A stretch of DNA of 37,790 nucleotides from Candidatus Hydrogenedentota bacterium (GTDB taxonomy: Bacteria > Hydrogenedentota > Hydrogenedentia > Hydrogenedentales > SLHB01), in the NCBI GenBank assembly GCA_035367355.1, contig DAOSJS010000003.1:1-37790 (forward strand), in the 5' to 3' direction. The translations under genes were made by a program, and so were the position numbers. The notes beneath the pieces were generated by a model that saw nothing but the letters and a program-made list of their open reading frames with translations, made no database searches and was not told the DNA's origin. Shown here one piece after another: positions 1,910-25,639 of the stretch. Position 1 is the first letter of the stretch. Each line of letters begins with the position of its first letter.

Positions 1910-2284
1910 TCAGGATTTGACCTGCCGTACGAGGCGTTCCAGCCAGGCGTCGAGGTAGCTGTGCCCGAGTTCTCGGGCGATATCCAGGCCCTCGACCCGC
2001 GCTAGCTCGATGGCGTATTCCTTGGCGCGGCGGCGGGCCTCTTTTCGTTCCGCGGAGGTCAGTTTGCCGTCTTCACGCGAGGCCTTGATCTCGCGCACGT
2101 AAGTTTCGTAGGTGTTCATGACACCCGTTTCGAGGGCAAGAAGGGCGCGTTCGCACCGGAGGCGGCGGGCACGCGCGTACAGATCAGTCGATTTGAAAAG
2201 AGACCAGAGTCCGCCCAGTACGACACCGAGCAGCATGAGTCCCTGGTCAGAATGGATCGCGTCGTTGAAGGTCACGGTAGGCAT
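1910..2284 (-). CDS. phage holin-like membrane protein (LL-H-type architecture)
   Basis: ATG at 2284 (MPTVTFND...) directly follows GGGAGG and lies 8 nt after the endolysin stop. The 223-aa track ORF is an upstream extension overlapping the endolysin gene. 124 aa: one N-terminal TM helix (GLMLLGVVLGGLWSLF), then a charged helical region. Confidence 0.5.
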   Translation of the reverse strand: MPTVTFNDAIHSDQGLMLLGVVLGGLWSLFKSTDLYARARRLRCERALLALETGVMNTYETYVREIKASREDGKLTSAERKEARRRAKEYAIELARVEGLDIARELGHSYLDAWLERLVRQVKS

Positions 2285-2292
2285 CCTCCCGG

Positions 2293-2796
2293 TCACGTCG
2301 GCGGCGCCGCGCGATGGCGGTTGTCCGCGTGGACGTGCCCGTCGTTGTAATCGTCTTTTACCCAGTCGAAGTAGCGGCGGCACACGGCTCCAAGCGTTTT
2401 CTGAGGGACACGTGCGCGGTTTCGTTCGAGCACGGCCACGATGTCGGCCGCGATGCCGCCGAATTTTGCGAGATGCCGGGAATTGCGGGACACGGCGCCG
2501 CCCTGGTCCGTCCATCCGTAAAGGGCGGCCAGGCGGCGCAGGTCCTCCTCGGTACGCACCGCGCTGGTGACGAGGATCCACACGGTCTCGCCGGCCATCT
2601 CGCAGAGATCCCGGCGGACCCGCTCGAGGGATTCGAGCAGCGTGGAGTGCACCATGGCCAACCCCGCGGCATTTTCGAACTCACGCAGACGAAAATGGGA
2701 AACCTCTCTGCCGTCGAGATTGGTCAACAGGCGGACATCGTTTCGGCGGTTATACGTAAGTGCGGACATCGCTGATGTATCCATTGAGGCCGTCAT
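2293..2796 (-). CDS. phage endolysin, peptidase M15 (Peptidase_M15_3-like zinc D-Ala-D-Ala / L-Ala-D-Glu peptidase fold)
   Basis: FRLREFEN, SRHLAKFGGIAADI (S-x-H...G-x-A-x-D) and DGHVHAD motifs match the H/D/H zinc site of M15 peptidases. Sits next to the holin. Start uncertain: ATGs at 2796, 2784 and 2769, none with a clear SD. Confidence 0.7.
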   Translation of the reverse strand: MTASMDTSAMSALTYNRRNDVRLLTNLDGREVSHFRLREFENAAGLAMVHSTLLESLERVRRDLCEMAGETVWILVTSAVRTEEDLRRLAALYGWTDQGGAVSRNSRHLAKFGGIAADIVAVLERNRARVPQKTLGAVCRRYFDWVKDDYNDGHVHADNRHRAAPPT

Positions 2797-3271
2797 CCGT
2801 GTTGACGACGGCGGTCATGCCGGGGCGCAGATGGAGGTGGGCCAGGGCAAGGCACGCGGCGCCGGGTCCGGGCGGCGATGGCGACACAGCTTCAACCCCC
2901 GGCGTGATGGTGACATCCCAGGTATCGAGCCGGGCTTGCACCAGGTCGATGCGCGGATGATGCAGCGGCGCGGCAATGCCGCCGAGGACCGTCGCAGTTT
3001 TCAAATGAAACGGAAACCGCTCGATGAAGGCGTATCCCGGCGCGACCTGTACCGCCAGGGCCGGCGGAGAAATGGCCGAGATGCCGAGATCGCCGTCGGC
3101 AGCGTTTCGAAGGATGCCGTTGCCGCCGCCCCAGGCGAGGCTGATGAGGTTCATGAGGAGTTCGAGAGCGGCCTCGATGCGATCGTCCCAGGTGTTGAGT
3201 TTGGCCGAGGCCACGGGCCGCTCCTGAAAGGCCCAGGACGTCTTGATGAAGCTTTTTCCACGAATGGCCAT
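2750..3271 (-). CDS. short phage tail fibre / receptor-binding-like protein
   Basis: ATG at 3271 preceded by GGGAGA plus a 5-nt spacer. The N-terminus KTSWAFQERPVASAKLNTWDDRIEAALELL resembles the conserved K-x-D-W...N-R-I-E fibre N-terminal motif. The C-terminal ...YISDVRTYV is also fibre-like. Confidence 0.45.
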   Translation of the reverse strand: MAIRGKSFIKTSWAFQERPVASAKLNTWDDRIEAALELLMNLISLAWGGGNGILRNAADGDLGISAISPPALAVQVAPGYAFIERFPFHLKTATVLGGIAAPLHHPRIDLVQARLDTWDVTITPGVEAVSPSPPGPGAACLALAHLHLRPGMTAVVNTDDGLNGYISDVRTYV

Positions 3272-3314
3272 GGTATCTCCCACGGAAAACCGCGCGCGCC
3301 GCGGCGTCCGGTAG

Positions 3315-5051
3315 TTATTCCAGGTGATAGCCCGAATCCAGGCCCACCGCCGGGTCATCCAGGCGAAACTGATACAGAGACTGTTCCGGCCCCTGGTGCT
3401 GCATCATGTGGTAGAGGGGATTCGCCACAGACCGCAACGGAGAGGTGCATCCGAGGGTCGTAGTTACCGTGCGCCCTGAAAACCGGTGGGTCACCCGGTT
3501 GACGCGCCGGACCAGGCGCCCGGCGAACTGGCCGCCCCATTCCCCGGGAAGCGGAAGGTCAAGCCGTCGCGGCGGCGCTCCGCGCAGTTCGAGCAGGTCG
3601 CCCGCCTGGAACGCTGCGGCGCCGTGATAGAGCGTGAGGAAGCCCGCGGCCTCGGGGTAGGCCAGGTCATGAAGCAGGCCGTTGGCAAGCCGATCGGCGT
3701 CGCCTTCGCTGGCAATGCCAAAATGCCGGAACCGCCGCGCGCGAAATCCGAACGTGTCCGCACTCTCCCCGCGAATATACGTCTTTTTGACCGGTCCCAG
3801 GATGGGATTGCCTTCAAAATAGAGGGCATTGACGATACTGGCGCCGTCCGAGGCAAGCTGGACGCCTATGGTGAGCGGGTCGTAGGCGAGAACGTGATCG
3901 CAGATGCCGGCCGGGCGAAAATGCACGGCGTCGTGAGGGCTGAGGTTCCAGACGCATCCGCCCGCATAGGCCAGCGCCGTCAACAGATCAAAGAGGCCGT
4001 GATCCGCTTCAAATGCGTTCAACGTGACCGGAACCGCTTCGATGGAATCGCTGCTGGCGCGGGTGTAGGAAAAATACTCCTTGAGCCGCATTTCGGGCGC
4101 ATGATACCGGCCGTCTTTGTACTGATAGACCTCGGAATGGCCCAGTTCCACCATGGCCGCGTTGAAACATTCGCCGCCGCCATAGACCAGGCCGACATAA
4201 CGGCCGTAGGCGTCAATACGGTCGTCGTAGGCGCCCGAAGCCCCCCGGTGAGGGTTCAATTCGATGGCGCGGATGCCTTTGCTGTCGATGAGATCCTGCA
4301 ATGCGCGCCGTGCCGCCTCGCCGGCCAGCGCGTAGCCGCTCGCGGCATACCGGGCCGAAGACCAGGAGGCAATTTCGGGATGGCGCGCCACGGCGTGGCT
4401 GTTTCGGGTCAATTCCTCGCAATCGATCATCATCAGGCGCAGGTCCGGCCAGGCAACGCCATCCACAGACAGCCCGGCGATGGTGTCGCCGTCTTTGGCG
4501 TAAGCGCGGGAGGCATCGATGCGGGGTGTTTCAACCCATTGCCCGGCGCTGATCCCGCCGAGCTCGAGCTCGTTGGCGGGAGTCTTTCGGGCGAGGTATT
4601 TGCCGTATTCGCGCTCGGCGCCGTCAGGATAGGCGGTATGGGTCACGAGATAGTGCACAGGTCCCACGGCGGTATTGATGAGATCTTTGACGATGGCATC
4701 GAGGCGTTCAGGACCGTAGCCCCGGGTCACGTGGGTATTCTGACGGGTGTTGCGGCGCTCGGCCCGGATTGCGATGACTTCATGAAAGTTTACGTAGCGG
4801 TCGAGTATGAGTTTCTTCGTGTCGCTCCATTGCGGACCCACCCAGGTGACTTCGGCCTCGCAGAACAGCTCATCTTCGAGCCGGATCGCGATGCGGCAAC
4901 CGGGGCCAAGCCCGTCGACGGCTTCAGGGAGCAATCCTTCGATGCGATCGGGCTGATCGGGAGCGCTGCGGGTTGCGTCCATCAGGGGCACGGAATGGAA
5001 GCGGGCTATCCGGAGGCCTTGTTGGTTATAGATCTCGATCGCGTAGCGCAT
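3315..5051 (-). CDS. phage tail-tip protein with embedded staphylococcal-nuclease (SNase/thermonuclease)-like domain
   Basis: About 578 aa. ATG at 5051 lies 2 nt after the upstream stop; an in-frame GTG at 5060 is the alternative start. Internal KDGDTIAG, LRLMMIDCEE and DAYGRYVGLVY...NAAMVELGHSEVY align with SNase IDGDTVKL, FRLLLVDTPE and DKYGRGLAYIY...NEALVRQGLAKV. Confidence 0.6.
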   Translation of the reverse strand: MRYAIEIYNQQGLRIARFHSVPLMDATRSAPDQPDRIEGLLPEAVDGLGPGCRIAIRLEDELFCEAEVTWVGPQWSDTKKLILDRYVNFHEVIAIRAERRNTRQNTHVTRGYGPERLDAIVKDLINTAVGPVHYLVTHTAYPDGAEREYGKYLARKTPANELELGGISAGQWVETPRIDASRAYAKDGDTIAGLSVDGVAWPDLRLMMIDCEELTRNSHAVARHPEIASWSSARYAASGYALAGEAARRALQDLIDSKGIRAIELNPHRGASGAYDDRIDAYGRYVGLVYGGGECFNAAMVELGHSEVYQYKDGRYHAPEMRLKEYFSYTRASSDSIEAVPVTLNAFEADHGLFDLLTALAYAGGCVWNLSPHDAVHFRPAGICDHVLAYDPLTIGVQLASDGASIVNALYFEGNPILGPVKKTYIRGESADTFGFRARRFRHFGIASEGDADRLANGLLHDLAYPEAAGFLTLYHGAAAFQAGDLLELRGAPPRRLDLPLPGEWGGQFAGRLVRRVNRVTHRFSGRTVTTTLGCTSPLRSVANPLYHMMQHQGPEQSLYQFRLDDPAVGLDSGYHLE

Positions 5052-5053
5052 GG

Positions 5054-5740
5054 TCACCACCAGCGCTCACGGAACGCGACTGTGGCGGCCGCCTGATGTG
5101 AGCTCGTGGATTGGTCCGTATAGGTGAGCGTGGTCTCGCCGGGTTCAAGCCGGGGGAAGGCGCCCCAGGTATATGGAGTGACGTCTTCGCCATCCAGCGT
5201 GGCTCGCGCCCGCGCCGTGTCGAATTCGAGGAAGGAGCCCTCCTTCACGATGCCGTCGTACTCGAGGCATTGAACGCCGTCGCTGAAGGTTGGCCGGACC
5301 AGCGCCCCGGCGGCCGTCAGCATGATCCGGGGGAGGGCGCAGGCGGTGCCGCCGCTGTTCACAAGCAGCGAAGAAGGCGATGCCGTGATCGGCCAGGCGA
5401 TTTCCGTAAGCGATTCGGCCTCTTCAAACGGGTCGCGCGCTTCGAGTTTGAGCGTGAACATCCCCACGAGACGCGCATGCTGAATCTCGCGGCGGAACGC
5501 CGCTCGCCGCACCATCAGCCGCCGTCCCGGGCGAATCGACAGCGCCGCCGAATAGTCCACCGCCGACGCCGCATGCAGTACGGCATCGAGCCGGGCCTCA
5601 AGTGCAGCGACGGACGTTTCTCCGAGGAGCACTCCAGCAATTTTTACCGTTCGCGCGTCCCGCCCGCCGACTTCCTCGTGCTGTTCCTGAATGGAGGTGA
5701 GCATTTCATCGAGAAGCAGGCCATTGAGCGTGATCGCCAT
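5054..5740 (-). CDS. phage tail-tip/baseplate protein (distal-tail-protein-like); family not securely recognised
   Basis: ATG at 5740 overlaps the upstream stop (TGATG), with GGAGGG 8 nt upstream. 228 aa. Lies between the connector and the large tail protein. The C-terminal ...FRERWW resembles siphovirus Dit-type proteins. Confidence 0.35.
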   Translation of the reverse strand: MAITLNGLLLDEMLTSIQEQHEEVGGRDARTVKIAGVLLGETSVAALEARLDAVLHAASAVDYSAALSIRPGRRLMVRRAAFRREIQHARLVGMFTLKLEARDPFEEAESLTEIAWPITASPSSLLVNSGGTACALPRIMLTAAGALVRPTFSDGVQCLEYDGIVKEGSFLEFDTARARATLDGEDVTPYTWGAFPRLEPGETTLTYTDQSTSSHQAAATVAFRERWW

Positions 5741-6159
5741 CAATCGGACCCTCCGAGGATGGGAATGGTATCCGTGACGTCGGCCGGGGCATGCGGCGGA
5801 TGGTCCCGGAGGAAAGGCGCCAGGAGATCCCAGGCCGCGGTGCGCGCGCTGCGCGCGACCGCCATGAGCGCGTCAAAACGGCGGCCGGCTTCGACGCGCT
5901 GGCCGCCTACGGCGACGTGAACCTGACTGTGCGCATCCTGCGCAGCGAGAGCGCGATAGACCTCGGCGCCAGCGAGCAGAGTCTCACCGGTGACGACGAG
6001 GTGGGGCAACGGCGCCTCGGTAAAACCGGGTTTCAGCCGGGTAAGCAGTTCGGCGTGAGCGTCGTCGATGGCCGCTTCGATGAGTTCGGCCGGAACAGAC
6101 GCCGTGTTCTGGAGTTGAAATCGCAGCCGGACCATGGTTTCGGTGGTAAAGCCGGACAC
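5740..6159 (-). CDS. head-tail connector/adaptor candidate (gp6-like)
   Basis: GTG at 6159 preceded by AAGGAGG plus a 7-nt spacer. The N-terminus ...MVRLRFQLQNTASVPAELIEAAIDDAHAELLTRL is typical of head-tail connector proteins. Lies immediately downstream of the major capsid gene. Confidence 0.45.
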   Translation of the reverse strand: MSGFTTETMVRLRFQLQNTASVPAELIEAAIDDAHAELLTRLKPGFTEAPLPHLVVTGETLLAGAEVYRALAAQDAHSQVHVAVGGQRVEAGRRFDALMAVARSARTAAWDLLAPFLRDHPPHAPADVTDTIPILGGSD

Positions 6160-6187
6160 GTCGGAACCTCCTTATCGGTGCGGGAGA

Positions 6188-6220
6188 CGGGGGCGGCCCG
6201 TGGGACGCGGACCGCCCCCG
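6188..6220 (-). other. 13-bp GC-rich stem-loop between major capsid gene and connector gene
   Basis: On minus-strand RNA, CGGGGGCGGUCCG-N7-CGGGCCGCCCCCG pairs fully, with one G-U pair. On the plus strand the same position is a C-A mismatch. It starts 5 nt after the capsid stop codon and has no U-tract. Confidence 0.5.
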
Positions 6221-6225
6221 TTACG

Positions 6226-7272
6226 TCAGGACCAGTCGCTCCGGATCACTACGCGGGCTTTCTCGTAGATGATCGCGAAATCGGTGACGACGGTCAGGTA
6301 CGTGCGGTCCCACTGCTGATTGATGAGCTTGTCGCTCTCAACCAGGAGCTCCTGCTCCGTCAGCTTCTGCGCCGCATACCCGGCATCGAGGATGGTCAGC
6401 CGGTTGGCGGGCTGGCCGGCCATGGGCACAAGCCTCGTCCCGAGCGGTGTGGGGAGATTGCCGGTCTTCGTGAAATCGAAAAGGGCGCTCTCCCTGAACG
6501 CGTCCAGTTCGAGGATGGTCTGACAGAGGTCTGCGTTGGCCAGCATATGGGTCGGCGTGAAGTAGTGGTCGAGGGTGAGCGTCATGAACCCGTTGACCAG
6601 ATCGCCGTAGGCCCAGGTGTCCGCCGTGGCAGTATCGAGCGTGACCGGCGCGGTGCCGGCGGCGCCGTCGCCCTCGGCCAGGATCTGCGCAAGGCGCGCG
6701 TCCAGATGGCGGCCCAGACGCTCCCCAATGCGCTGCAGGTGAACGCGGAGCATGTCGACGGACATGCGCCGGATCACTTCGTACGATGCAATCACGCCCC
6801 GGCCTTTCTTGTCGAGCTTGATCACGCGGTCGCCGTACTTGATGGACGACTCAGGGATCGCGGCGCCTTCCGCTACGGTGCGCAGCTCTTCTTCAAGCTC
6901 GTCCTCCCGCACGTAGGGGACGTCAAAGGCCGTGCTGGCGACCCGTTCGTCGCGGATGATCAGGCTGGGGTAGACCGGTTTGCGCGTCATGCCGCTGACG
7001 ACGGCGTCGCGGACCATGTCCGGAAACAGCCATTTGGCGTTGGGGTCAGATTGAAAGAAGCGGTCGACGGTGATCCGGTCCAGGTCGATGCCGAATTCCT
7101 GGGCGCAATAGTCCCGTACGGTCGTGCCGAGCGCGCGGAAAAACTGTCCGTGATTCAGGCCGAGCCCCTGCAGGGTCTCGTAAAGTCCCGCGCCACGGAT
7201 TTGGCGGAGCTGGCCGGGTTCCTGGCTCAGGAACGCGACCCGCTCCTTCACGATATCGTCGCGATACGCCAT
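6226..7272 (-). CDS. phage major capsid protein (HK97 fold)
   Basis: ATG at 7272 (MAYRDDIVKE...) preceded by GGGAGGA plus a 7-nt spacer. The 450-aa track ORF is a Pro/Arg/Ser-rich upstream extension overlapping the decoration gene. 348 aa, with the size, position and sequence character (..GVIASYEVIRRMSVDMLRVHLQRIG..) of a major capsid protein. Confidence 0.75.
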   Translation of the reverse strand: MAYRDDIVKERVAFLSQEPGQLRQIRGAGLYETLQGLGLNHGQFFRALGTTVRDYCAQEFGIDLDRITVDRFFQSDPNAKWLFPDMVRDAVVSGMTRKPVYPSLIIRDERVASTAFDVPYVREDELEEELRTVAEGAAIPESSIKYGDRVIKLDKKGRGVIASYEVIRRMSVDMLRVHLQRIGERLGRHLDARLAQILAEGDGAAGTAPVTLDTATADTWAYGDLVNGFMTLTLDHYFTPTHMLANADLCQTILELDAFRESALFDFTKTGNLPTPLGTRLVPMAGQPANRLTILDAGYAAQKLTEQELLVESDKLINQQWDRTYLTVVTDFAIIYEKARVVIRSDWS

Positions 7273-7285
7273 CGTTGATTCCTCC

Positions 7286-7669
7286 CTAGAGCAAGACGTG
7301 GACCTGGCCAGCGACCGTGTCCACTTTGAGGTTGATGCCGGCCCCGTTGCCGGATGCCGGCGCCTTGACCTTGCCGCTGGACTCCGCGGCGACGATGCCC
7401 GCAAGCCCATTGACCGTGGGCGGGGTCTCGCCTTCGTAGTCAAAGACGGATACGCCGCGCACCTTGACCGGAATGGCCGCGCCATTCGCGGTGCTGCCGG
7501 CGAGGGCCTCGCCGAGCACGGGACTTTCGGCATCGGCGTCGTTGCAGACGGTATACGGTCCGGCCAGCGAGACGGCATCGCCCTTGGCGATGTTCACGGA
7601 GCCGGAATCGGGGGTTTTGCAGGTGATGACGAGTTCGGTCACCACGCCGCCAATATCTCCAAATGCCAT
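7286..7669 (-). CDS. head decoration/cement protein (DUF2190-like)
   Basis: ATG at 7669 (MAFGDIGG...) lies 8 nt after AGGAG. 127 aa, Gly/Ala/Val-rich beta protein directly upstream of the capsid gene, as with lambda D-E. Confidence 0.6.
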   Translation of the reverse strand: MAFGDIGGVVTELVITCKTPDSGSVNIAKGDAVSLAGPYTVCNDADAESPVLGEALAGSTANGAAIPVKVRGVSVFDYEGETPPTVNGLAGIVAAESSGKVKAPASGNGAGINLKVDTVAGQVHVLL

Positions 7670-7807
7670 GATGGTCACTCCTGGGGTTCGGCCGCGCAGC
7701 CGTAGCGATTCATGACGGTATGTGCGGCCAGGTTGTTCGTGTCAGGAACCGGCCCTTCGCCCGGGCTGTTGGAGCCGGGACAGAGAGCGCCGTGGCGCGG
7801 CCGGCGT

Positions 7808-8512
7808 TCAGCCGCCGCGCACGATACCCATCGCCCGGTCCGTCCAGGCCGCAGGCTCGCTGTCTGGGAGCGCTTCCGGCTGCGACGTGGGTGATGGGGG
7901 AAATTTGTTATCAAACCGGACCTCGTACGCACGCAAATGGCGGGTAATTTCTTCGAGACTGAGGGATTCCAGCGTTCGCCGCCAGACCCCCTCGTCAAAG
8001 GCGGCGGCGTCGAGCTCGCGCCCAAGTCCGCAGAACCGTTCGAGTGCACGCTGCCGCGCCGTCACGCCATCGCGCACGATGCCGGCCAGGGCCGTGGGCT
8101 CGAGCGCCATTTCGCGGATGGTTTCGTGGAGGGCGCGCGCGGTGTCCGGAGAGAACGACGGCATGCGTTCTGCCCGGAGAAATTGCGTACTATGCCGGCC
8201 TTCGAGCAGGAGTTCGCGCACGTCCTTCGACCACCTGATGACAGTGAACAGGCCGGCTTCTTCACGCACGGCATCGCCGTCGTGCTCGAGCCAGCGCAGC
8301 GGATGCGGCGCCTTTTCAGTAGCCCAGACGCCTTCCGGGCAGGGCGCCTGCTCAAAACGCCAGCCGACCAGGTATCCCGCCTGTTCGAGCCGCAGATCCC
8401 GGTGCGGGCCTGCGGCGTCAACGTGGCGGTGGAGCACAAAACGCCCCGCGGGCGCCTGATTCCGTTCCGAAACCGGGCTCATTTCCGGCAAAAAGGCGAT
8501 TTTCCAATACAT
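7808..8512 (-). CDS. LigD 3'-phosphoesterase (LigD_N/PE)-like domain protein with an unknown C-terminal half
   Basis: ATG at 8512 preceded by AAGGGAGA. RFVLHRH-x6-HRDLRLE...GW...HPLRWLEHDG resembles the PF13298 signature F-V-x-Q-x-H...H-Y-D-x-R-L-E...SWA...DHPL-x-Y. The C-terminal ~120 aa is unrecognised. Confidence 0.55.
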   Translation of the reverse strand: MYWKIAFLPEMSPVSERNQAPAGRFVLHRHVDAAGPHRDLRLEQAGYLVGWRFEQAPCPEGVWATEKAPHPLRWLEHDGDAVREEAGLFTVIRWSKDVRELLLEGRHSTQFLRAERMPSFSPDTARALHETIREMALEPTALAGIVRDGVTARQRALERFCGLGRELDAAAFDEGVWRRTLESLSLEEITRHLRAYEVRFDNKFPPSPTSQPEALPDSEPAAWTDRAMGIVRGG

Positions 8513-8532
8513 GCCCACAGTCTCCCTTCTCG

Positions 8533-8757
8533 TTACGCCAGTTGGCGCAGCAAAGACATGATGACGCCCACCAGATTGGCCACCAGCAGGGCCACGCCCC
8601 GCGCAAGCGTGCTTTCGAGCCGCTGCACGCGGGTCTTGACCTCGCAGAGATCCTCCCGAAGGCTCATCCACTGAATGTCATGGACGGGCTGGTAGGGGCA
8701 CGCTGCCGCGCTGTCAGGCAGTGCCTGTTTTCCCGCTGCGTTGCTGCACGGATTCAT
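8533..8757 (-). CDS. small tail-anchored membrane protein (XhlA-like architecture)
   Basis: ATG at 8757 preceded by AAGGAGG plus a 7-nt spacer. 74 aa: a helical region (LREDLCEVKTRVQRLESTLA) followed by a C-terminal TM helix (GVALLVANLVGVIMSLL). Confidence 0.4.
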   Translation of the reverse strand: MNPCSNAAGKQALPDSAAACPYQPVHDIQWMSLREDLCEVKTRVQRLESTLARGVALLVANLVGVIMSLLRQLA

Positions 8758-8771
8758 CGCGCGGCCTCCTT

Positions 8772-10433
8772 TCAGTTGCTCGACCGGCTGATTTCGTACC
8801 AGGCGCCGGCCACAAATACGAGCACCAGGGTGTCGTCGGGATGGGCGGTCCACGGCCCCGCCAGGTGAAGGTTGGCGTTGTCGGCGAACACACAGTCAGA
8901 ATCCCCGCCGACGATGGTGACGAATTGCCCGGGGGCTCCGTCTTCGAGCTGAGTGACGTCATGACCGGGCGTCCAGCCGTCAGGCACGCAAAAGACGTTG
9001 GCTCCCCGTACGCTGGGGGTGCTGTCGTTGGCGGCGAAGGTGACGAGCGCGGAGGTGTTGAGCGCCCCGGCCACAGACGCATTCGCGCCAAAGAACGCAT
9101 CCGGCCCGTTCAGGCGCAGGGCCGTGGTCTGCGTTCCAGCGTTGAGAAGCCGGAATTCGATCTGGCCCGATTCGCTGCCGGCAGCGGTCTCCTGGATTCG
9201 GCTGGAAATCAGCGCGTATGACACAGGACTGGATGCGCTGTTGAGTCCGCGGAATACGATCGAACCCACCGCGGTGTCTTTGACCGGCGTACCGGTGCGG
9301 TCCAGGTACAGCGCCGGTTGCGTGCTGTTGTGAAGGCGTATCTGGCCTTGCTGCTGGAGTTGCGATGCGCTGACTGAGAAATTCGAGGAAGCCAGCGTAA
9401 GTGTCGCTGCGCCGCTGGCGGCAGAAACGTTGAGGTTGCCCGGCGTGGTAAGATCTCCGCCCTGGACTTCGAGGTCTCCCGCGACGGTAACGTCGTCGCC
9501 AAACCGGCAGGCGCCCCGCCCGGTATAAACGGCGTAATTGGCCGCCATACCCTGAGTGATGTCATCGAGATACAGGCCGTAGAGGTTGGTGACCGTGCCT
9601 GTGGCGCCGGAGACCCGGCCATGCAGGGCGACGCCGTTGGTCATGCCGCCGAGCTGGTTGAGCAGCACTTCGCCGCGGACGCCGACTCCCCGGTTGATTG
9701 AGGTGAAAACCGGTCCCGGCATCACGCGTCCGGCTGCGCCAATGAGGTCGGTTGCCGAAGCGCTGTATCCCGAGCCAATGGTGGCGCTGCCCGCCATGCC
9801 TTGAATGCTGGATGCGGTATGAAATCCGCTGGACCACACGGTATGGCCTTCGAGTGCGGCACGGCTGGTGGAGGAGAGCGTACTGGAACCTTCAAACTGC
9901 GCCTTCAGCAGATACGAATTGCCGGTGGCCGTTCCAGCGGAAACCGGGCCTCTTACGTTGAGAGCCCCGGGCAATATGACGTCGCCGCTGTTCTGGATGC
10001 GGAGGTCCGGGGCGTTCAAAGGCTGGATCGCGCTGCCGGTATCCTTCCACAGTTGTTCGCCGGTTCCACTGAGGAAATCCGCCCGCGTCATGTTGCGCGT
10101 GGCGCCAGCGCTGGCGTCATGGATCAGGACCATGTCGGCGTCATCGGCCTGGGATTCACTCTGGGCGGCCGGAATGCAGAGCGCACCAGCGTCGAGCAGC
10201 CCTTCGCTCGTCGTGAGAGTATGTTCCTCCGGACCCGCCACCAGTCGGCCGCGAAGAATGATGCCGCCGTCGGTCCGGATGTCCCCGTCGGCGTCAATGT
10301 CGACTCCGCCGTCCGAATCGCCATAGCCGCCACCGATGCGCAGCGATTCCAGGTAGCGTGGTGCGGCGCCCAGGGCCGGCAGCAGAACGGCCGCAATGCC
10401 TATGCTGAATAACCAGGGATATCTGCGCATCAT
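8772..10433 (-). CDS. fibre-like / beta-rich repeat protein with signal-peptide-like N-terminus
   Basis: 553 aa. The start overlaps the protease stop (ATGA). N-terminus MMRRYPWLFSIGIAAVLLPALGAAP. Gly/Ser/Thr/Ala-rich body. The DDADMVLIHDASAGATRNMTRADF motif and the C-terminal ...LVLVFVAGAWYEISR are common in phage fibre proteins. Confidence 0.5.
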   Translation of the reverse strand: MMRRYPWLFSIGIAAVLLPALGAAPRYLESLRIGGGYGDSDGGVDIDADGDIRTDGGIILRGRLVAGPEEHTLTTSEGLLDAGALCIPAAQSESQADDADMVLIHDASAGATRNMTRADFLSGTGEQLWKDTGSAIQPLNAPDLRIQNSGDVILPGALNVRGPVSAGTATGNSYLLKAQFEGSSTLSSTSRAALEGHTVWSSGFHTASSIQGMAGSATIGSGYSASATDLIGAAGRVMPGPVFTSINRGVGVRGEVLLNQLGGMTNGVALHGRVSGATGTVTNLYGLYLDDITQGMAANYAVYTGRGACRFGDDVTVAGDLEVQGGDLTTPGNLNVSAASGAATLTLASSNFSVSASQLQQQGQIRLHNSTQPALYLDRTGTPVKDTAVGSIVFRGLNSASSPVSYALISSRIQETAAGSESGQIEFRLLNAGTQTTALRLNGPDAFFGANASVAGALNTSALVTFAANDSTPSVRGANVFCVPDGWTPGHDVTQLEDGAPGQFVTIVGGDSDCVFADNANLHLAGPWTAHPDDTLVLVFVAGAWYEISRSSN

Positions 10434-11119
10434 TCGTCCTCCCAGAGTCCGCCTGCCCCCAGCTCGATGGGCAGATGAAAGTCGCGCCGGGCCGCAGCCA
10501 GCGCATCATCGAGACCGAGCGCCCGGGTCCCTGCCACGAAGCGGGTGCCCTGCGAACCCGAGGCGACGACGGAGCCTTCGGTTACCTCGAGCACATCGCG
10601 CAGCACGCAATGACATAGATTTTCGCCGTAGCTGCGCCCGGGGATGTGTTCGCAGGTCCGCAGATCTTTGCCACAGACCGAGCATTCGGGTTTGCGGAAC
10701 GAGAAACCGATCGAGGTCTCCCGGTACACGCCGCCTTCGATGTTCAGGATGAAGTCCTGATTGGCGCGGGTACGGAGAACATAGACATCGGGCCGGACCG
10801 CCAGCTGTTCTCCGTCGGTATGAAGGCGCGAACGGAAGAACGTGCCCCGGGGCAGCGAACCGCGCACATCATGCCGTTCCATGAGGGGGCGCCCCGGAAC
10901 CAGCGCGTTGATCCGCTCCAGTTCTTCCTCGGGAAAGCGGCTGAAATGGCGGTCGATCCGGTTGTTGCACAGATCGAGCGTGAATACGGCGAATTCTTCC
11001 GCCGTCAGAGGCCGCAGGGTAAACGCATTGACCTCGTCGATCGTATCGGCCACTGTGCCGCCATCGCGTGTGCCGACGAGGACGCCTTCGTGGCGGAAGA
11101 CAAACGGTTCCAGTTCCAT
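10430..11119 (-). CDS. prohead protease candidate (S78/HK97-like) with Cys/His cluster
   Basis: ATG at 11119 preceded by GAGGAAAGGA. Lies directly after the portal gene. LMERHD...LPRGTF...IEGGVYRETSIGF resembles the His and Ser regions of Peptidase_S78. Followed by CSVCGKDLRTCEH...CHC. Confidence 0.5.
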   Translation of the reverse strand: MELEPFVFRHEGVLVGTRDGGTVADTIDEVNAFTLRPLTAEEFAVFTLDLCNNRIDRHFSRFPEEELERINALVPGRPLMERHDVRGSLPRGTFFRSRLHTDGEQLAVRPDVYVLRTRANQDFILNIEGGVYRETSIGFSFRKPECSVCGKDLRTCEHIPGRSYGENLCHCVLRDVLEVTEGSVVASGSQGTRFVAGTRALGLDDALAAARRDFHLPIELGAGGLWEDE

Positions 11120-11146
11120 TGGAGTTCCTTTCCTCGGGATACGGGT

Positions 11147-12418
11147 TCAGGAGACAGTGATGCCCAGGGATTCCGCGGCCTTTTCGTGAGTGAGGAAGCC
11201 GGCGTCGCGCAACAGAATCGCGTTTTCAATCTCGTGGCGCCGGGCCTGGGCTTCGCGCACGATGTCGGCGGTGCGGTGCGAGCGCATGTGCACGGCGGCA
11301 CGCGCGCTGCCCCACATGAGGGCCAGCTCAAAGTTGTACAGCCGTTCGAGCAGGCGTTTGACGCAACGGTTCACCGCAGTAACCTGGCGGGTGATGATCT
11401 CGAATTGCGCTGTGCCGTAGGTTTCTGTCGTACCGTAGTTGCGCCCCAGAAGGATCGGCATCAGGTGCATGCCCGTGATGACCTGTTCCTCGATGGCCTT
11501 GTGATTTTCATAGAAAACCTGGGAGCGCTGATCGCCGCGGACCAGCGACACGCTGACGTTGTCAAAGGTCACAAGATTCTGATCAGTCTCCAGGGAACTC
11601 AGCTTCGTGCGCAGTTCGGAGAAATTGGCCTCTACGCGGTTGTGATAGGCCTCAACCGATTCGCCCCGCTGCCGTTCCTCGGGCCGGTACTGAACGTGGA
11701 GCTTCGCCCATCCCGCGTTATGGGTGGCCTTGGCCATGTCTTCCAGAAGACGCTGCTGGATCTTGACCACGAACGGAATGGCACGCAGCATCGATCGCCC
11801 ATACGGATTGGTGCCGTCGCGATCGAGGCCCACATACATGAAACGCTCCCGGGGCAGGGGGATCTCGCGGCCTTCGTGGAGCTGGAAAGCCTCCAGCCCA
11901 TGTTTCCCGCGCCGGAACCGCAGCGTCCAGACATCCACCGGCACAACGTCCCAGATCGATTCCCGGCTCTGCGACAGCACAATTTCGACCGCCGCCGCCC
12001 CGTACGTGAACAGGGAGGTGTAGAAGATGTCGAGCAGGCCGTCCATGCCCCGGTCGCCGCTGTTGACGCGGCGGTTGAGGGCATCGAGCAGGCGTTCCGC
12101 CCGGCGCTGAGCCGGGCGCGATGAGGCCTGCGTGATCTCGAGGTCGTAGCCGGTCTGGCACAACCGTTTCCAGGTCCAGATGGCATCCGAGATGTCGGGG
12201 ATGGCATCGCGAAGAAAGCGATAGACCTGCAGCATGTAGAACGGAGTCTCGTTGGGCAGCCCGATCACATCCCGAAGGGCCCCCTGCAGGCGGCTGGCGT
12301 CTTCCGGCACCGTGTACGTCCGGGGCGGCCTTTCGCGGAAAGTCTCCGCGAGCACTGTGGTTTTGCGCCGGGCCGGGCGCCACGGCATCGTCCGAAATCG
12401 CTCCAACCATCGTGCCAT
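11147..12418 (-). CDS. phage portal protein
   Basis: ATG at 12418 (MARWLERF...) preceded by AAGGAG plus a 5-nt spacer. 423 aa, with the size and position expected upstream of the protease/capsid genes. Portal-like central region (..NPYGRSMLRAIPFVVKIQQRLLEDMA..). Confidence 0.65.
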   Translation of the reverse strand: MARWLERFRTMPWRPARRKTTVLAETFRERPPRTYTVPEDASRLQGALRDVIGLPNETPFYMLQVYRFLRDAIPDISDAIWTWKRLCQTGYDLEITQASSRPAQRRAERLLDALNRRVNSGDRGMDGLLDIFYTSLFTYGAAAVEIVLSQSRESIWDVVPVDVWTLRFRRGKHGLEAFQLHEGREIPLPRERFMYVGLDRDGTNPYGRSMLRAIPFVVKIQQRLLEDMAKATHNAGWAKLHVQYRPEERQRGESVEAYHNRVEANFSELRTKLSSLETDQNLVTFDNVSVSLVRGDQRSQVFYENHKAIEEQVITGMHLMPILLGRNYGTTETYGTAQFEIITRQVTAVNRCVKRLLERLYNFELALMWGSARAAVHMRSHRTADIVREAQARRHEIENAILLRDAGFLTHEKAAESLGITVS

Positions 12419-12665
12419 GTTCGCTCCTTGCGGGGGGTTGCGGCCGCGTCTACTACATTGGAGCGTGTATTGTCCCGGCAGCGAAACGTATTCGCTCTGG
12501 AAGATGCTGAAGTGACGTATCTTAGGACGGAGTGCCTCCAGTGTGCATGTACTCCGTAAGAGCAGCAGCCGGCCACGGAGGTTCAATCGAACTCAGAGGG
12601 GAAAGGCTCTGCGGATCCGGTCCGGGCGTGGGCGGCCAGCGAAGTGCCGTGCCGCGCCAGGCGAG

Positions 12666-14420
12666 TCAGCGGGCTGTTTCGTCCATGGCCTGCGTGGCGG
12701 GCCGGGGCGTGCGGTAATTGAGATCCACGGGCGATGCTTCGGTCGTAGGCAGCAGTTCGGCGAAATAGACGTCGTTCTGTTCACGGAGCCGCAGGCGGCG
12801 GTGGCAGACGCCACATTTGAACTCGGTGCCCGCCTCGCCGGTCTCCGGAACGGGTACGTACGTACTGCAGAACGGACACGACACGCTGAGGTCGTCTTTG
12901 GCGTAATTCTGGAAGATCGCATCGACGCGCCCGGCCCGGTAGGCCCGGACCATGGCATCAACGATCACGGGGTCGAACTGGGTGCCTTTGCCTTTTTCGA
13001 GTTCCGCGACGGCGATTTCCGGGCTGAGCCCTTTGCGGTACGGGCGATTGCTGGTCATGGCGTCGAAGGTGTCGGCCACCGCAATCAGGCGGCCCTCGAT
13101 GGGGATCTCTTCTCCCGTGAGGCCGAACGGATAGCCCTCGCCGTCGTAGCGTTCGTGATGATACAGCGCATACGGGATCAGCGAGGCGAGAGCGGGCACA
13201 TCCTGCATCATGCGCGCCCCGCGTTCAGGATGCACTTTCATTTTCTCGTATTCGTCGTCGTTGAGGCCGCCAGGTTTGCGCAAAATGTTGTCGTCGATGG
13301 CGATTTTGCCCACGTCATGCAGGACGCCGCCCATTTCGCATTCGCGGAGTTTTTCGTGGTCCCAGCCGAGCTCGCGCGCGATGGCGAGGGCAAAATTGGT
13401 GACGCGCCAGGTGTGGCCCACCGTGTAATGATCGCGGGCCTCGATGGCGTTAGCCGTCATGACCAGGGTGCCCTGATATGCGCTCTCGAGCTTATCGACG
13501 TATTGCGCATTTTTGATGGCGATAGCGGCTGGTCCCGCAAGGGCCACGAGGAGCTCGAGATCGCCCTCCGTAAACGCATTCGTGGTGCCTCGTGTGTCGA
13601 CATAGAGCACGCCCAGCGTCTCATCGTGCACCTGCAGGGGCGTGCACATGGCCGAGGCAATGTTGTGCAGAATAATGCTCTGGCCGTGGCCCAGACGGCT
13701 GTCGTCCGCGGCGTCAAACACGAGGATGGCTTCGCTCTGATCGTAGGCCCGCTGCACGATGGTGGAACTGATCGTCACGTGCTCGTTTTCGTCGCGGCCC
13801 TTGCGCATGTGGGCAGGTTCCAGGCGCGATGTGGCGGGGTCGGCCAGCAGAATAGCCCCGTTGTGCGCCGGCACCAGCCCAAAGATCTGGTCGAGAACGC
13901 GCTCAAAAAGCCGGTTCAGATCGCGCTCGCTTGAGATAACCTGATTGGCCGCATAAACCGCCGCAAGGCGCTCCTGGGCCTTGCGGGCCTGCTCTGCGGT
14001 CTGCGCGGACAGAGGAGCGGCAAGAAACGTGCGGTGAACGTTTTCCGCGGTCAGGGCCTGCACATTCTCCACGCCGCCTTCCTCAAACACCACGGAGGGC
14101 GACCCTGAATGGCTCGGCAATTCCGCCGCACAGCTTTCAAACCGCAGACTAATGGGGCCGATGGAAATGACGTCGCCGTGAGACAGCCGGTACTCGACAA
14201 TCCGGTGGTTGTGCACATACGTCCCGTTGCCGCTCCCCAGGTCCCGGATAAGCGTGCCCAGCGCCGTCTGTTGAATCACCGCATGCCTGCGGGACACTTC
14301 GAGCTCGTTGAGTTGCAGGCCGCTGTGCGGGCTCCGGCCAATGGTCAGCGTGCCTGTGATTGGGCACGTTTCACCCTTCCTGAGGCCGGTCAGAACTCGG
14401 ATTGTCTCGCAGGGTTTCAT
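12666..14420 (-). CDS. FHA - GAF - HD-GYP (c-di-GMP phosphodiesterase-type) protein with C-terminal zinc ribbon
   Basis: N-terminal FHA (TIGRSPHSGLQLNELEVSRRHAVI...GSGNGTYVN-like). Central GAF. HD-GYP motifs HDVGK and HHERYDGEGYP. C-terminal CPFC-x19-CGVC. Confidence 0.85.
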   Translation of the reverse strand: MKPCETIRVLTGLRKGETCPITGTLTIGRSPHSGLQLNELEVSRRHAVIQQTALGTLIRDLGSGNGTYVHNHRIVEYRLSHGDVISIGPISLRFESCAAELPSHSGSPSVVFEEGGVENVQALTAENVHRTFLAAPLSAQTAEQARKAQERLAAVYAANQVISSERDLNRLFERVLDQIFGLVPAHNGAILLADPATSRLEPAHMRKGRDENEHVTISSTIVQRAYDQSEAILVFDAADDSRLGHGQSIILHNIASAMCTPLQVHDETLGVLYVDTRGTTNAFTEGDLELLVALAGPAAIAIKNAQYVDKLESAYQGTLVMTANAIEARDHYTVGHTWRVTNFALAIARELGWDHEKLRECEMGGVLHDVGKIAIDDNILRKPGGLNDDEYEKMKVHPERGARMMQDVPALASLIPYALYHHERYDGEGYPFGLTGEEIPIEGRLIAVADTFDAMTSNRPYRKGLSPEIAVAELEKGKGTQFDPVIVDAMVRAYRAGRVDAIFQNYAKDDLSVSCPFCSTYVPVPETGEAGTEFKCGVCHRRLRLREQNDVYFAELLPTTEASPVDLNYRTPRPATQAMDETAR

Positions 14421-14650
14421 TCAGTCGTCCACGGTCCGGAGTTTACACATTCCCGCGCTTGTCCAGGGCCTGGAAGACCTGCCCGCACGCCACACCTCGC
14501 ACCGCGAAGCCGGGCGGATGGGCTGCCACGCCCTGCACTAATCCGCACCTTGAGATTATGCCGGAAAGGCTTTCTTTCCGCATTTCCCCTCCTTTATAGC
14601 ACACAACCCTGCCAAGATTCGCGGAAAATCGCATGCGATCGTCCGTTTAG

Positions 14651-14679
14651 TTGACAGGTGTCTGGCGAGTTCCTATAAT
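14651..14679 (+). promoter_or_regulatory. sigma70-type promoter for the HDOD gene
   Basis: TTGACA (14651-14656), a 17-nt spacer, then TATAAT (14674-14679): both hexamers are consensus. Confidence 0.6.
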
Positions 14680-14691
14680 CGCAGTGTCAAT

Positions 14692-14764
14692 AGCGGGAAA
14701 TCTGAGTTTTCCCGCTCACGTCTGTGAGAGCGGGTCGTGTGAGATCCCTGGGGTTTGTCAGGGA
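14692..14764 (+). promoter_or_regulatory. structured 5' leader of the HDOD gene: two mutually exclusive hairpins plus an SD-occluding hairpin
   Basis: Hairpin A: AGCGGGAAA (14692-14700) with TTTCCCGCT (14708-14716). Hairpin B: CCCGCUCAC (14711-14719) with GUGAGAGCGGG (14724-14734); it shares CCCGCU with A. Hairpin C: TCCCTG (14745-14750) with CAGGGA (14759-14764); it overlaps the GGGAGG SD. Confidence 0.4.
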
Positions 14765-14772
14765 GGATTCAG

Positions 14773-15627
14773 ATGCGAGGCCGCGTTGAAGCAATCGATG
14801 ATATCGCGACCCTGCCCGAGGTTTTGACCCGGATCATCGCCGTGGTCCAGGATGAAAGCACCACCGCCCTGGATCTGGCCGACGAGATCGTGCGTGATCA
14901 AGCTCTGGCGATGCGCGTCCTGCGTGTGGTGAACTCCAGTTTCTACGGCTTTCCGCGGGCCATTTCAAACATCCCCGAAGCGGTGGTGATACTGGGCTTC
15001 AACGAAATCGAGCGGCTCGCCCTCACCATCTCCGTCATCAACATCTTCGGGAAGAGCCCGGCCCATGTACGTGCCCTGCACAATCTCTGGCGGCACAGTC
15101 TGGCCTGTTCGCTGGCAGCCGGAACGCTGGAACAGCATTTTCGCCGGCTGTACCCCGAGATTGCGGGCGCGCATCTCGCGGGCTTGCTGCACGACATCGG
15201 CAAGGCGGTGATTATCCAGTATTTTCCCGACGAACTGACTCGGGTGATCCATATGGTGGAGTCCCTGGGCTGCTCCGCTTACGAAGCAGAGTACGAAGTG
15301 TTCGGCGGCATAACCCATGGTGAAATCGGCGCGTGGCTGGCGGAACGATGGCAGTTGCCCGAAGTGCTGGTACAGAGTATCGCCGGGACTCACCGCCCGT
15401 CCGATGTGCCGGGCAATCCGATCATGCCGCATGCGACTCATTTGGCGGACGCGCTGGTCAACATGATGGGCATCGGCGCGCTGAACGATCAGCCGCAAGC
15501 CCTGTCTCCCAATCCCGAGTCGCTCGAAAGACTCCCCCTGGATGAGGGTCTTGTGACGCGGATTCAGGAACGCCTCAATAAACAGCGGGGATTGCTGGGC
15601 GCGGTGGCGGTAGGCGCACTGAGCTGA
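14773..15627 (+). CDS. HDOD domain-containing signalling protein
   Basis: ATG at 14773 lies 6 nt after GGGAGGA. The sequence LPEVLTRIIAVVQDESTTALDLADEIVRDQALAMRVLRVVNSSFYGFPRAISNIPEAVVILGF is a canonical HDOD N-terminal region. Confidence 0.85.
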   Translation: MRGRVEAIDDIATLPEVLTRIIAVVQDESTTALDLADEIVRDQALAMRVLRVVNSSFYGFPRAISNIPEAVVILGFNEIERLALTISVINIFGKSPAHVRALHNLWRHSLACSLAAGTLEQHFRRLYPEIAGAHLAGLLHDIGKAVIIQYFPDELTRVIHMVESLGCSAYEAEYEVFGGITHGEIGAWLAERWQLPEVLVQSIAGTHRPSDVPGNPIMPHATHLADALVNMMGIGALNDQPQALSPNPESLERLPLDEGLVTRIQERLNKQRGLLGAVAVGALS

Positions 15628-22732: not shown

Positions 22733-22742
22733 CGCACGCGCT

Positions 22743-25612: not shown

Positions 25613-25639
25613 CCCCAGACAACATGCACGGAGGTGCAG

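Follow-up and report, generated by a model that had tools for sequence, protein, structure and literature searches.

A conserved, vertically inherited locus of phage origin in Hydrogenedentota that most likely encodes particles akin to gene transfer agents

We analyzed a 37,790-nucleotide stretch of DNA from a Candidatus Hydrogenedentota bacterium (GenBank assembly GCA_035367355.1, contig DAOSJS010000003.1; hereafter, the window), in which 13 co-directional genes on the minus strand form a ~10.5-kb block (positions 1910-12418) of head, tail-tip, and lysis functions. We propose, with moderate confidence, that the block forms the operon for the structural and lysis proteins of a particle system derived from phage, that this system became domesticated early in the candidate phylum and has since been passed on vertically, and that it is most likely of the gene transfer agent (GTA) type. 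Known GTAs occur in a handful of lineages, each the product of an independent phage domestication. An earlier note, written from the sequence alone, had raised the idea of a domesticated GTA-like or particle-producing locus, and it is supported by a gene order conserved in at least 71 species, by purifying selection, and by co-divergence of the block with its flanks. GTA-like behavior, with heads filled with host DNA, is the most likely mode of action because phage genes for replication, integration, and regulation are missing.

All 13 open reading frames (ORFs), which we number g1 to g13 from the portal gene downstream, were recovered where the earlier note had placed them, and its description of the layout held throughout. 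Start and stop codons are coupled by an ATGA overlap (10430-10433), a TGATG overlap (5738-5742), and a 2-nt gap (5052-5053), in agreement with the gene coordinates, and most starts are preceded by GGAGG, GGAG, or AGGAG, where the note had reported GGAGG-type ribosome-binding sites before almost all genes. Cellular genes adjoin both ends: a Gfo/Idh/MocA gene on the 3′ side (start at 1734) and an FHA-GAF-HD-GYP gene on the 5′ side (stop at 12666), leaving 247 non-coding bases ahead of the portal gene. The window contains no tRNA gene, as the note had said of the flanks.

A scan of one genome per GTDB species found at least 71 capsid loci, one per genome and nearly all in Hydrogenedentota, a figure that counts carriers of the block. 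In tblastn searches with all 13 proteins, the order was almost everywhere g1, g2, (g3), g4, g5, g6, g7, g8, g9, g10, g11, (g12), g13. Loci of related genomes are designated here by L numbers. Capsid identity to the window ranged from 57 to 94% across species, and the median identity between species was 72% (capsid), 70% (portal), 69% (g2), 58% (g11), or 54% (g10). Homologues numbered 364 for the capsid, 329 for g10, and 373 for g11; the best 120 of the 364 capsid homologues were 70-94% identical to the window protein and 341-350 aa long, and the named ones were nearly all Ca. Hydrogenedentes. The window capsid protein had an exact match on contig JAKPKP010000020.1 of the Ca. Hydrogenedentes metagenome-assembled genome GCA_029553625.1, and an identical protein in the same gene context was present on 24 other contigs from many samples. 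The labels of some block contigs (L006, L012, L020, L032, and others) include ‘uncultured Nitrospiraceae’, ‘Bathyarchaeia archaeon’, ‘Planctomycetota’, and ‘Rhodothermaeota’; judged by their gene content, these are probably Hydrogenedentota with placeholder or mis-binned names.

The genes of the block are intact and constrained. Only two in-frame stops were found in ~530 copies of core genes, which extends to the relatives the earlier remark that the ORFs, unlike those of a decaying prophage, lack premature stops. A comparison of synteny and of the ratio of nonsynonymous to synonymous substitution rates (dN/dS), which the note had recommended as a check, gave the conserved order described above and, when measured against the nearest species (L004, L005, L006, and L008), dN/dS values of 0.05-0.25 in most of the 13 genes versus 0.08-0.20 in adjacent host genes. 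Exceptions were g4 (0.25-0.36 against L006 and L008) and g6 (0.42-0.61 in the two closest pairs). The block is thus under purifying selection as strong as that acting on its neighbors, and dS is the same in the block (~0.6-0.7) as in flanking genes (0.59-0.78). Its composition is likewise that of the host: the window is a chromosomal stretch of high GC content (~0.63), block genes and host genes have nearly equal GC content at third codon positions (GC3; 0.761 and 0.762) and a codon usage that is correlated at r = 0.95, so that the block is not distinguishable from host genes in base composition, GC3, or codon usage and is fully ameliorated. Because of its distribution, intact genes, purifying selection, and host-like composition, we do not regard the block as a decaying prophage.

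The flanking genes vary between distant species and are common to members of clades defined by the capsid. Pairwise identities of flank genes and capsids were correlated in nine of ten gene families (r = 0.88-0.98), and the capsid was more conserved than the neighboring host gene in 88% of pairs (means of 81% versus 59%). These flanks, shared within clades and co-diverging with the capsid, together with dS values equal to those of the flanks, show that the block is inherited vertically. Downstream of the block, a context of PMT_2, polysaccharide synthase, and GT2 genes spans several clades. In several loci the block has been interrupted and its genes have remained intact: L075 carries ~7 kb of inserted cellular genes and an inversion, L077 two inserted genes, L069 NHL and ankyrin/Kelch genes between g5 and g6 (6052-8863), L033 an insertion sequence (IS; DDE) transposase between the capsid gene and g8 (11643-12224), and L048 a DUF6414 gene between the portal gene and g2 (208-1275). 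The possibility that genes inserted within the block are terminases was ruled out by their identification as ankyrin/Kelch, NHL, DUF6414, and IS transposase genes.

A promoter-like element, GACAAT-N13-TAGTAGA (12449-12474, minus strand), lies 31-56 nt upstream of the portal ATG. It is unique in the window, where none is expected by chance, is conserved in the window’s clade, and is a local variant of (G)TGCAAC-N13-16-TAnAGA, which occurs across the sampled Hydrogenedentota genomes. In 24 of 51 species the (G)TGCAAC part precedes the portal start by ~55 nt, compared with 13 occurrences in 238 control upstream regions. The composite TGCAAC-N13-16-TAnAGA had 24 matches in the 2.18 Mb of locus sequence, of which ~20 immediately precede genes of the block or of the terminase locus described below. 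The genes that bear it are the portal gene; g2, g6, or g10 exactly where the operon is split; an Amidase_2 gene; and gX of the terminase locus. A scan of the block for the sigma-70 consensus gave 0 sites. We infer that the motif is a promoter. Where foreign genes split the operon, a second copy often stands ahead of the downstream part. An orphan copy in L050 (position 2395, plus strand; TGCAACGGGTTGTCTGGTATATAGG) has no called gene downstream and is followed by G-rich, structured-looking sequence.

The gene that we call gX, which encodes a small protein, was found because it carries the same motif as the portal gene. Scanning metagenomes with a gX alignment yielded 13 loci, in which a second gene, gY, adjoins gX. 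The gY proteins are 470-492 aa long and 64-83% identical between species, and they contain Walker A (CDGRDVGKT) and Walker B (IVDEAQE) motifs together with acidic motifs of the nuclease type. In tblastn searches gY matched annotated large terminases of the phages Moorella MTATph1 (3e-19), GX15bay (1e-16), and HGTV-1 (4e-7), as well as an unannotated Microcystis phage gene (9e-34). No precomputed Pfam match exists for gY, and its best, weak sequence matches in the PDB (E = 0.02-0.9) are the large-terminase ATPase and nuclease domains of P74-26 and G20c, the P74-26 ATPase being the best. Motifs and phage matches together identify gY as the predicted large terminase. The gY clusters are named Ca. 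Hydrogenedentes. The gX-gY unit stands alone among cellular genes, and in most loci the motif or a TGCAAT variant lies ahead of gX. It shares a contig with the block in three loci: in L046 and L077 it lies 2-5 kb ahead of the portal gene, and in L094 gX is divergent from the portal gene. The earlier note’s suggestion that packaging functions are encoded elsewhere is thus borne out by a separate, motif-bearing terminase unit in related genomes. The size of gX, its location ahead of the large terminase gene, and the motif that it has in common with the portal gene suggest that it is the small terminase; a more specific assignment to the P27 type, an impression from the sequence backed by no search, was dropped. 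In several species (L103-L117; for example, L103:752-4476), gX is followed, in this order, by a gene for a 3D-domain (PF06725) protein, an opposite-strand BD-FAE esterase gene, and the large terminase gene, and in L082 (2885-4032) the 3D-domain gene follows gX beside the portal gene. The 3D-domain protein may be a further cell-wall-active component.

Next to the block itself, neither a terminase nor an integrase was found: in precomputed Pfam annotations of seven species and a Pfam scan of eight deep-branching ones, cellular genes lie on both sides. The gap upstream of the portal gene is 55-800 bp in ~50 species, and the one gap of 1.9 kb holds a gene for a secreted zincin-like protein on the other strand. 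Queries with the large terminase of Bacillus phage CUBc25 (phmmer, tblastn) had no match in the window and ~85 related loci. When 128 flank proteins were compared with PHROG, the best 25 of 93 families included no terminase or integrase family with matches from at least two proteins, a result that comes from one of three batches and does not exclude matches by single proteins. Integrase, replication, and regulator genes and att-like repeats were absent from the block and its surroundings in the window and ~15 Pfam-annotated species, and a scan of IMG/VR with the portal alignment returned only two contigs, both fragments of a head-only variant of the same element. These profile scans agree, for the window and its relatives, with the earlier observation that terminase, integrase, replication, tail-tube, and tape-measure genes are missing from the block. 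We also considered whether one of the unassigned ORFs could be a terminase or tail-tube gene, a finding that the note had named as evidence against a domesticated system, and profile and structure searches gave none: g3 is fibre-like, g5 a probable phosphoesterase, g10 a hub, and g11 like a receptor-binding protein (RBP), and the others are too small.

Among the head-module genes, portal and HK97-type capsid, both named in the earlier note, are backed by Pfam and PHROG matches. The portal gene, g1 (11147-12418; 423 aa), belongs to the Mu-type family (PF06074, 5.6e-8; phrog_3753, 1.7e-43) and is intact in 53 of 53 copies. The HK97-fold major capsid protein, g7 (6226-7272; 348 aa), matches PF25209 (1.6e-13) and phrog_3922 (2.2e-48), with PF05065 matched only by some of its relatives, and has a dN/dS of 0.05-0.09. 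The note’s prohead protease, decoration protein, and connector are on less firm ground. The first of these, g2 (10430-11119; 229 aa, with a Cys/His cluster), matches phrog_16951 (2e-36), a family whose PHROG function is unknown; it has no Pfam match and no sequence match in the PDB, also when its family profile is used. Its phage homologues sit between portal and capsid genes, one of them annotated ‘major head and protease’, and it conserves the residues H83-D84 and S136-x-G-F, so g2 is probably a prohead protease. Just upstream of the capsid gene, g6 (7286-7669; 127 aa) encodes a small virion protein that matches phrog_4588, ‘virion structural protein’ (1.7e-7), and occupies the same position as a 129-aa gene of phage CUBc25; it is tentatively a decoration protein. 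The third, g8 (5740-6159; 139 aa), had no match in Pfam, NCBIfam, or PHROGs at relaxed thresholds or in a PDB profile search, and is presumed from its position between capsid and distal tail genes to be the head-tail adaptor; its start overlaps the stop of g9.

Two further genes lie within the head module. The 74-aa product of g4 (8533-8757) has a C-terminal membrane segment (hydrophobic residues 54-70) and is single-pass and tail-anchored; the gene has a strong ribosome-binding site, and its position between g2 and g5 is conserved. In searches of Pfam, NCBIfam, and PHROGs at relaxed thresholds, g2, g3, g4, and g8 gave nothing useful. The 234-aa product of g5 (7808-8512) combines a probable N-terminal LigD-type 3′-phosphoesterase domain with a helical C-terminal half. 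The domain assignment comes from a profile search of the PDB, where the family profile matches 3p43 (1.5e-7) and 3p4h (7.7e-7); the single sequence reaches 1.8e-5 against TIGR02777 and falls below the curated cut-offs of PF13298 and TIGR02777. Residues H30, D32, H37, D39, R41, E43, and H70 are invariant. In one clade (L044, L049, L053, L054, and L056) only the C-terminal half, corresponding to about residues 125-232 of the window protein, is present, and the LigD-type domain is therefore read as an accessory N-terminal fusion to a conserved helical core. No homologue of g5 was found in 50,697 phage genomes.

The two tail-tip-like proteins of the earlier note proved to be a distal tail protein (Dit) and a baseplate hub. 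Dit is encoded by g9 (5054-5740; 228 aa; PF22768, 1.5e-7; phrog_33 and phrog_5577, ~1e-11). For g10 (3315-5051; most homologues 578-584 aa), an AlphaFold2 model (predicted local distance difference test, pLDDT, of 88; predicted template modelling score, pTM, of 0.88) matched, in Foldseek searches, the hubs of contractile injection systems (CIS), Mu, T5, pyocins, and type VI secretion systems (T6SS) in the PDB at 9e-12 to 1e-8, as well as viral tail proteins at 6e-14, which identifies the modelled fold as that of a baseplate hub of the gp27, Mu gp44, and VgrG type. A staphylococcal nuclease (SNase) domain is inserted in mid-hub at about residues 175-330 (PF00565, 8e-5; family profile, 7e-7; Foldseek, 2e-5). 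The SNase residues D21, R35, D40, E43, and R87 correspond to D192, R208, D213, E216, and R287 of g10 and are conserved in 45 of 45 aligned homologues, and the domain is predicted to be active. As with g5, no homologue of g10 was found in the 50,697 phage genomes.

The note’s short fibre is g11 (2750-3271; 173 aa), a small protein resembling trimeric fibres and RBPs. Its homologues are exactly 173 aa long in 119 of 120 listed cases and 172 aa in one. In its model (pLDDT 80), which is not tube-like, the N-terminus is disordered and a long helix (residues 24-46) is followed by a beta head; the best structural matches, all weak, are a phi812 baseplate protein, SPP1 gp22, the p2 RBP, and Mtd, and the sequence profile had no match in the PDB. 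A second fibre candidate, g3 (8772-10433; 553 aa), present in a subset of species only, is a variable tail-spike- or fibre-like protein with a hydrophobic N-terminus, conserved ends (residues 1-60 and 453-553), and a variable middle; a relative (L070:8523-9452) matches a PHROG tail-spike family (1.5e-7), and its dN/dS (0.21-0.26) is among the highest in the block.

Of the M15 endolysin and holin proposed earlier, the former stands by way of relatives. The window protein of g12 (2293-2784) has no match by itself, and its membership of the M15/LAS-fold zinc peptidases was seen through relatives, 9 of 61 of which match Peptidase_M15_3 (PF08291; best 1e-10). The family profile reaches the Hedgehog N-domain (1e-3) and the Ply500 L-Ala-D-Glu peptidase (9e-3), a wider profile also VanX, and H104, D114, and H152 are invariant. 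Present in about one-third of species, g12 is a probable cell-wall hydrolase. The 124-aa g13 protein (1910-2284), conserved in 37 loci, has a single membrane segment (hydrophobic residues 14-30) and a PHROG holin match at 0.004, and can only tentatively be called a holin. In L022, which lacks g12, an Amidase_2 endolysin-type gene (4026-4589, minus strand; PHROG amidase, 2.5e-25) lies ~2 kb upstream of the portal gene and carries the TGCAAC...TATAGA motif, which suggests that the lysis enzyme was swapped within the same regulon.

These assignments suggest how a particle might be made. A dedicated promoter, TGCAAC-N13-16-TAnAGA (GACAAT...TAGTAGA in the window), would drive the operon; the portal, the protease-like protein, the small capsid-associated protein, and the HK97-fold capsid would build the head; and the adaptor, a Dit ring, the gp27-like hub with its Ca-nuclease domain, and the small fibre-like protein would form a stubby tail tip. 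DNA would be packaged by the large terminase and its small partner from the separate two-gene locus under the same type of promoter, and the zinc peptidase and small membrane proteins would release the particles by lysis. Assembly, packaging of host DNA, and release by lysis are thus predicted steps of the proposed system.

Several observations weigh against a GTA-like particle of this kind. No locus contains a gene for a tail tube, terminator, sheath, or tape measure. It is unusual for a Dit ring to lack a tube, so further components may be encoded elsewhere, or the particle may differ from a phage in not injecting its DNA. The candidate small terminase gX showed no similarity to small terminases in Pfam, PHROG, PDB, or phage searches. 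The window itself does not contain the terminase unit, and the four gY clusters that were looked up all come from assemblies other than GCA_029553625.1; we infer that the window’s own genome has the unit as well. One clade (L061, L065, L066, L080, and L081) is without g8-g11 at the locus, and g12 and g13 are missing in some species. This reduced clade is deep-branching, with capsids 57-66% identical to that of the window, and has the order g1, g2, g4, g5, g6, g7, g12, g13 (for example, L066:2474-7693); with only g1-g7, g12, and g13 at the locus, its tail-tip genes must be either elsewhere or dispensable. Finally, all genomes are metagenome-assembled, and the system is known here from genes alone. 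A gene for a TPR protein is the conserved upstream neighbor in L066 and L081.

The absence of a tube and tape measure for DNA delivery also suits a domesticated particle with a job other than transfer, either a killer or effector with the hub nuclease as payload, comparable to VgrG spikes that bear effectors, or a device that degrades or scavenges extracellular DNA, the head and terminase being kept for assembly or other cargo. We consider this possible, if clearly not the likeliest use of the particle. The SNase catalytic residues are all conserved across the phylum, neither g5 nor g10 has a phage homologue, and the probable 3′-phosphoesterase fused to a head-module protein matches the ends that the nuclease would produce: SNase leaves 3′-phosphate ends, and LigD phosphoesterases remove 3′-phosphates. 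Yet the portal and large terminase are as strongly conserved as the capsid, a point in favor of DNA packaging. In addition, the nuclease is embedded in the hub and is not a detachable C-terminal effector, and the phosphoesterase domain has been lost in one clade. Given the chemistry of the two enzymes, the pairing of g10 with g5 is coherent, and its role here is a matter of speculation. One such speculation, which we think rather improbable, is that the particle is no conventional GTA but a phage-derived organelle, a ‘head plus baseplate’ without a tube, in which the hub SNase would cut DNA in a Ca-dependent manner and the phosphoesterase on a scaffold-like head protein would heal the ends. 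Conserved across the sampled Hydrogenedentota and set apart by its DNA-end chemistry, such a machine would take up, process, or deliver DNA by a route undescribed for any phage or GTA.

The two readings in which the block is not domesticated fare worse. The earlier note had offered the virion module of a short-tailed element or satellite as an alternative, and head genes without a linked terminase, tube, or tape measure, in chromosomal neighborhoods that differ among distant species, would indeed fit a satellite of the capsid-forming phage-inducible chromosomal island (cf-PICI) type or a helper-dependent short-tailed mobile element. We regard this as very unlikely, however, as no species examined has an integrase, replication or regulator genes, or att-like repeats, and no tRNA is at hand; flanking genes are shared within clades, diverge along with the capsid, and have the same dS as the block; insertions of cellular genes and of an IS element have cost the block none of its genes; the lineage owns a conserved large terminase; and only two related contigs were found in IMG/VR. 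A cryptic prophage remnant left by a recent deletion and not yet decayed, the note’s other alternative, would account for the missing modules and is compatible with the window by itself, but the same truncated content in at least 71 species, down to 57% capsid identity, the strong purifying selection on intact genes, and the full compositional amelioration refute it to the point where we give it next to no weight.

A phage-derived system of GTA type, the reading that we favor, invites comparison with the GTA of Rhodobacter capsulatus (RcGTA) in Alphaproteobacteria, whose chromosomal phage-derived genes have been passed on vertically throughout a large clade under purifying selection, include no replication or integration genes, and are spread over several loci under common regulation. 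The two are alike in their fixed head, tail, and lysis genes, vertical inheritance, purifying selection, lack of replication and integration genes, and dispersed loci that are, or appear to be, regulated together. RcGTA, however, has its terminase in the main cluster and a PF04860-type portal, whereas the block would rely on a separate two-gene unit and has a Mu-type PF06074 portal and a PF25209 capsid; of the genes that RcGTA has for a tail tube, tape measure, terminator, and megatron, none was found at the block; and the hub nuclease and LigD-type phosphoesterase are without RcGTA counterparts. For the system studied here, DNA transfer is a prediction. By its portal and capsid families and its lack of clustered terminase, tube, and tape-measure genes, the block is assigned to a lineage not homologous with the RcGTA family.

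Brachyspira VSH-1, the Bartonella GTA (BaGTA), and Bacillus PBSX are likewise chromosomal loci of head, tail, and lysis genes that specify non-propagating phage-like particles. Compared by description, each of these is confined to one genus or family and its tail is complete, whereas the block spans the sampled candidate phylum, has a tail tip only, and consists of its own protein families. cf-PICIs are mobile, carry an integrase, regulators, a replication module, and a small terminase, and borrow the large terminase and tails of a helper phage; the block resembles them in that genes for a portal, a protease, an HK97 capsid, and a connector are linked neither to a large terminase gene nor to those of a full tail, and differs in its lack of integrase, regulator, and replication modules, its vertical inheritance, and the large terminase of its own lineage. 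The nearest phages are Bacillus phage vB_BcM_CUBc25, Brevibacillus phage Jenst, and uncultured gut phages (MT835769 and others), which share the order portal, g2-like gene, small pre-capsid gene, and capsid at identities of only 21-36% in portal, g2, and capsid, with 25-33% for the head genes of the closest ones; unlike the block, they have a terminase gene directly upstream of the portal gene, a tape measure, and a full tail, and they have no homologues of g5 or g10. A hub fold with a built-in enzymatic domain, as in g10, is also found in T4 gp27-gp5 lysozyme and evolved VgrG proteins; unlike these, g10 has an SNase-type nuclease in mid-hub and no surrounding sheath or tube system.

If the block does encode a GTA, it represents a further independent domestication and the first in the candidate phylum Hydrogenedentota of the Fibrobacterota-Chlorobiota-Bacteroidota (FCB) group; its conservation suggests that domestication took place near the base of the sampled diversity of the phylum. 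Domesticated phage particles are already known; the present one belongs to a lineage of its own, extends them to a new phylum, and is unusual in architecture, with a terminase unlinked from the structural genes and apparently co-regulated with them through the shared motif, no linked tube or tape measure, a nuclease domain in the tail hub, and a putative DNA-end-healing domain on a head-module protein. Our literature search found no paper linking Hydrogenedentes or Hydrogenedentota with GTAs, capsids, or domesticated phages, and we know of no isolate of the phylum. The shared motif offers a handle for locating the rest of the regulon in complete genomes, and, as Hydrogenedentota are abundant in anaerobic digesters, existing virome and metatranscriptome data bear on particle production and cargo.

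The remaining genes of the window are cellular and include the Gfo/Idh/MocA and FHA-GAF-HD-GYP genes mentioned above and genes for an HDOD protein, ThuA, an ABC sugar transporter, O-antigen ligase, glycosyltransferases, GH123, GroEL, and an outer-membrane efflux protein. The two genes next to the portal gene on its upstream side (12666-15627), those for the FHA-GAF-HD-GYP phosphodiesterase and the HDOD protein, are both related to cyclic-di-GMP. This adjacency is restricted to the window’s own clade (L005), and a response regulator gene adjoins the portal gene in another clade (L030, L036, and L071). A 497-aa ORF without a Pfam match (21509-23002, minus strand), a candidate gene, separates the ABC transporter genes from that for O-antigen ligase. 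Envelope-polysaccharide genes were observed downstream of g13 in L017, L018, L026, L039, L067, L070, L073, L075, and L077; in the window, O-antigen ligase and GT4 genes (23468-27933) lie 11-15 kb upstream of the portal gene, on the opposite side of the block from g13.

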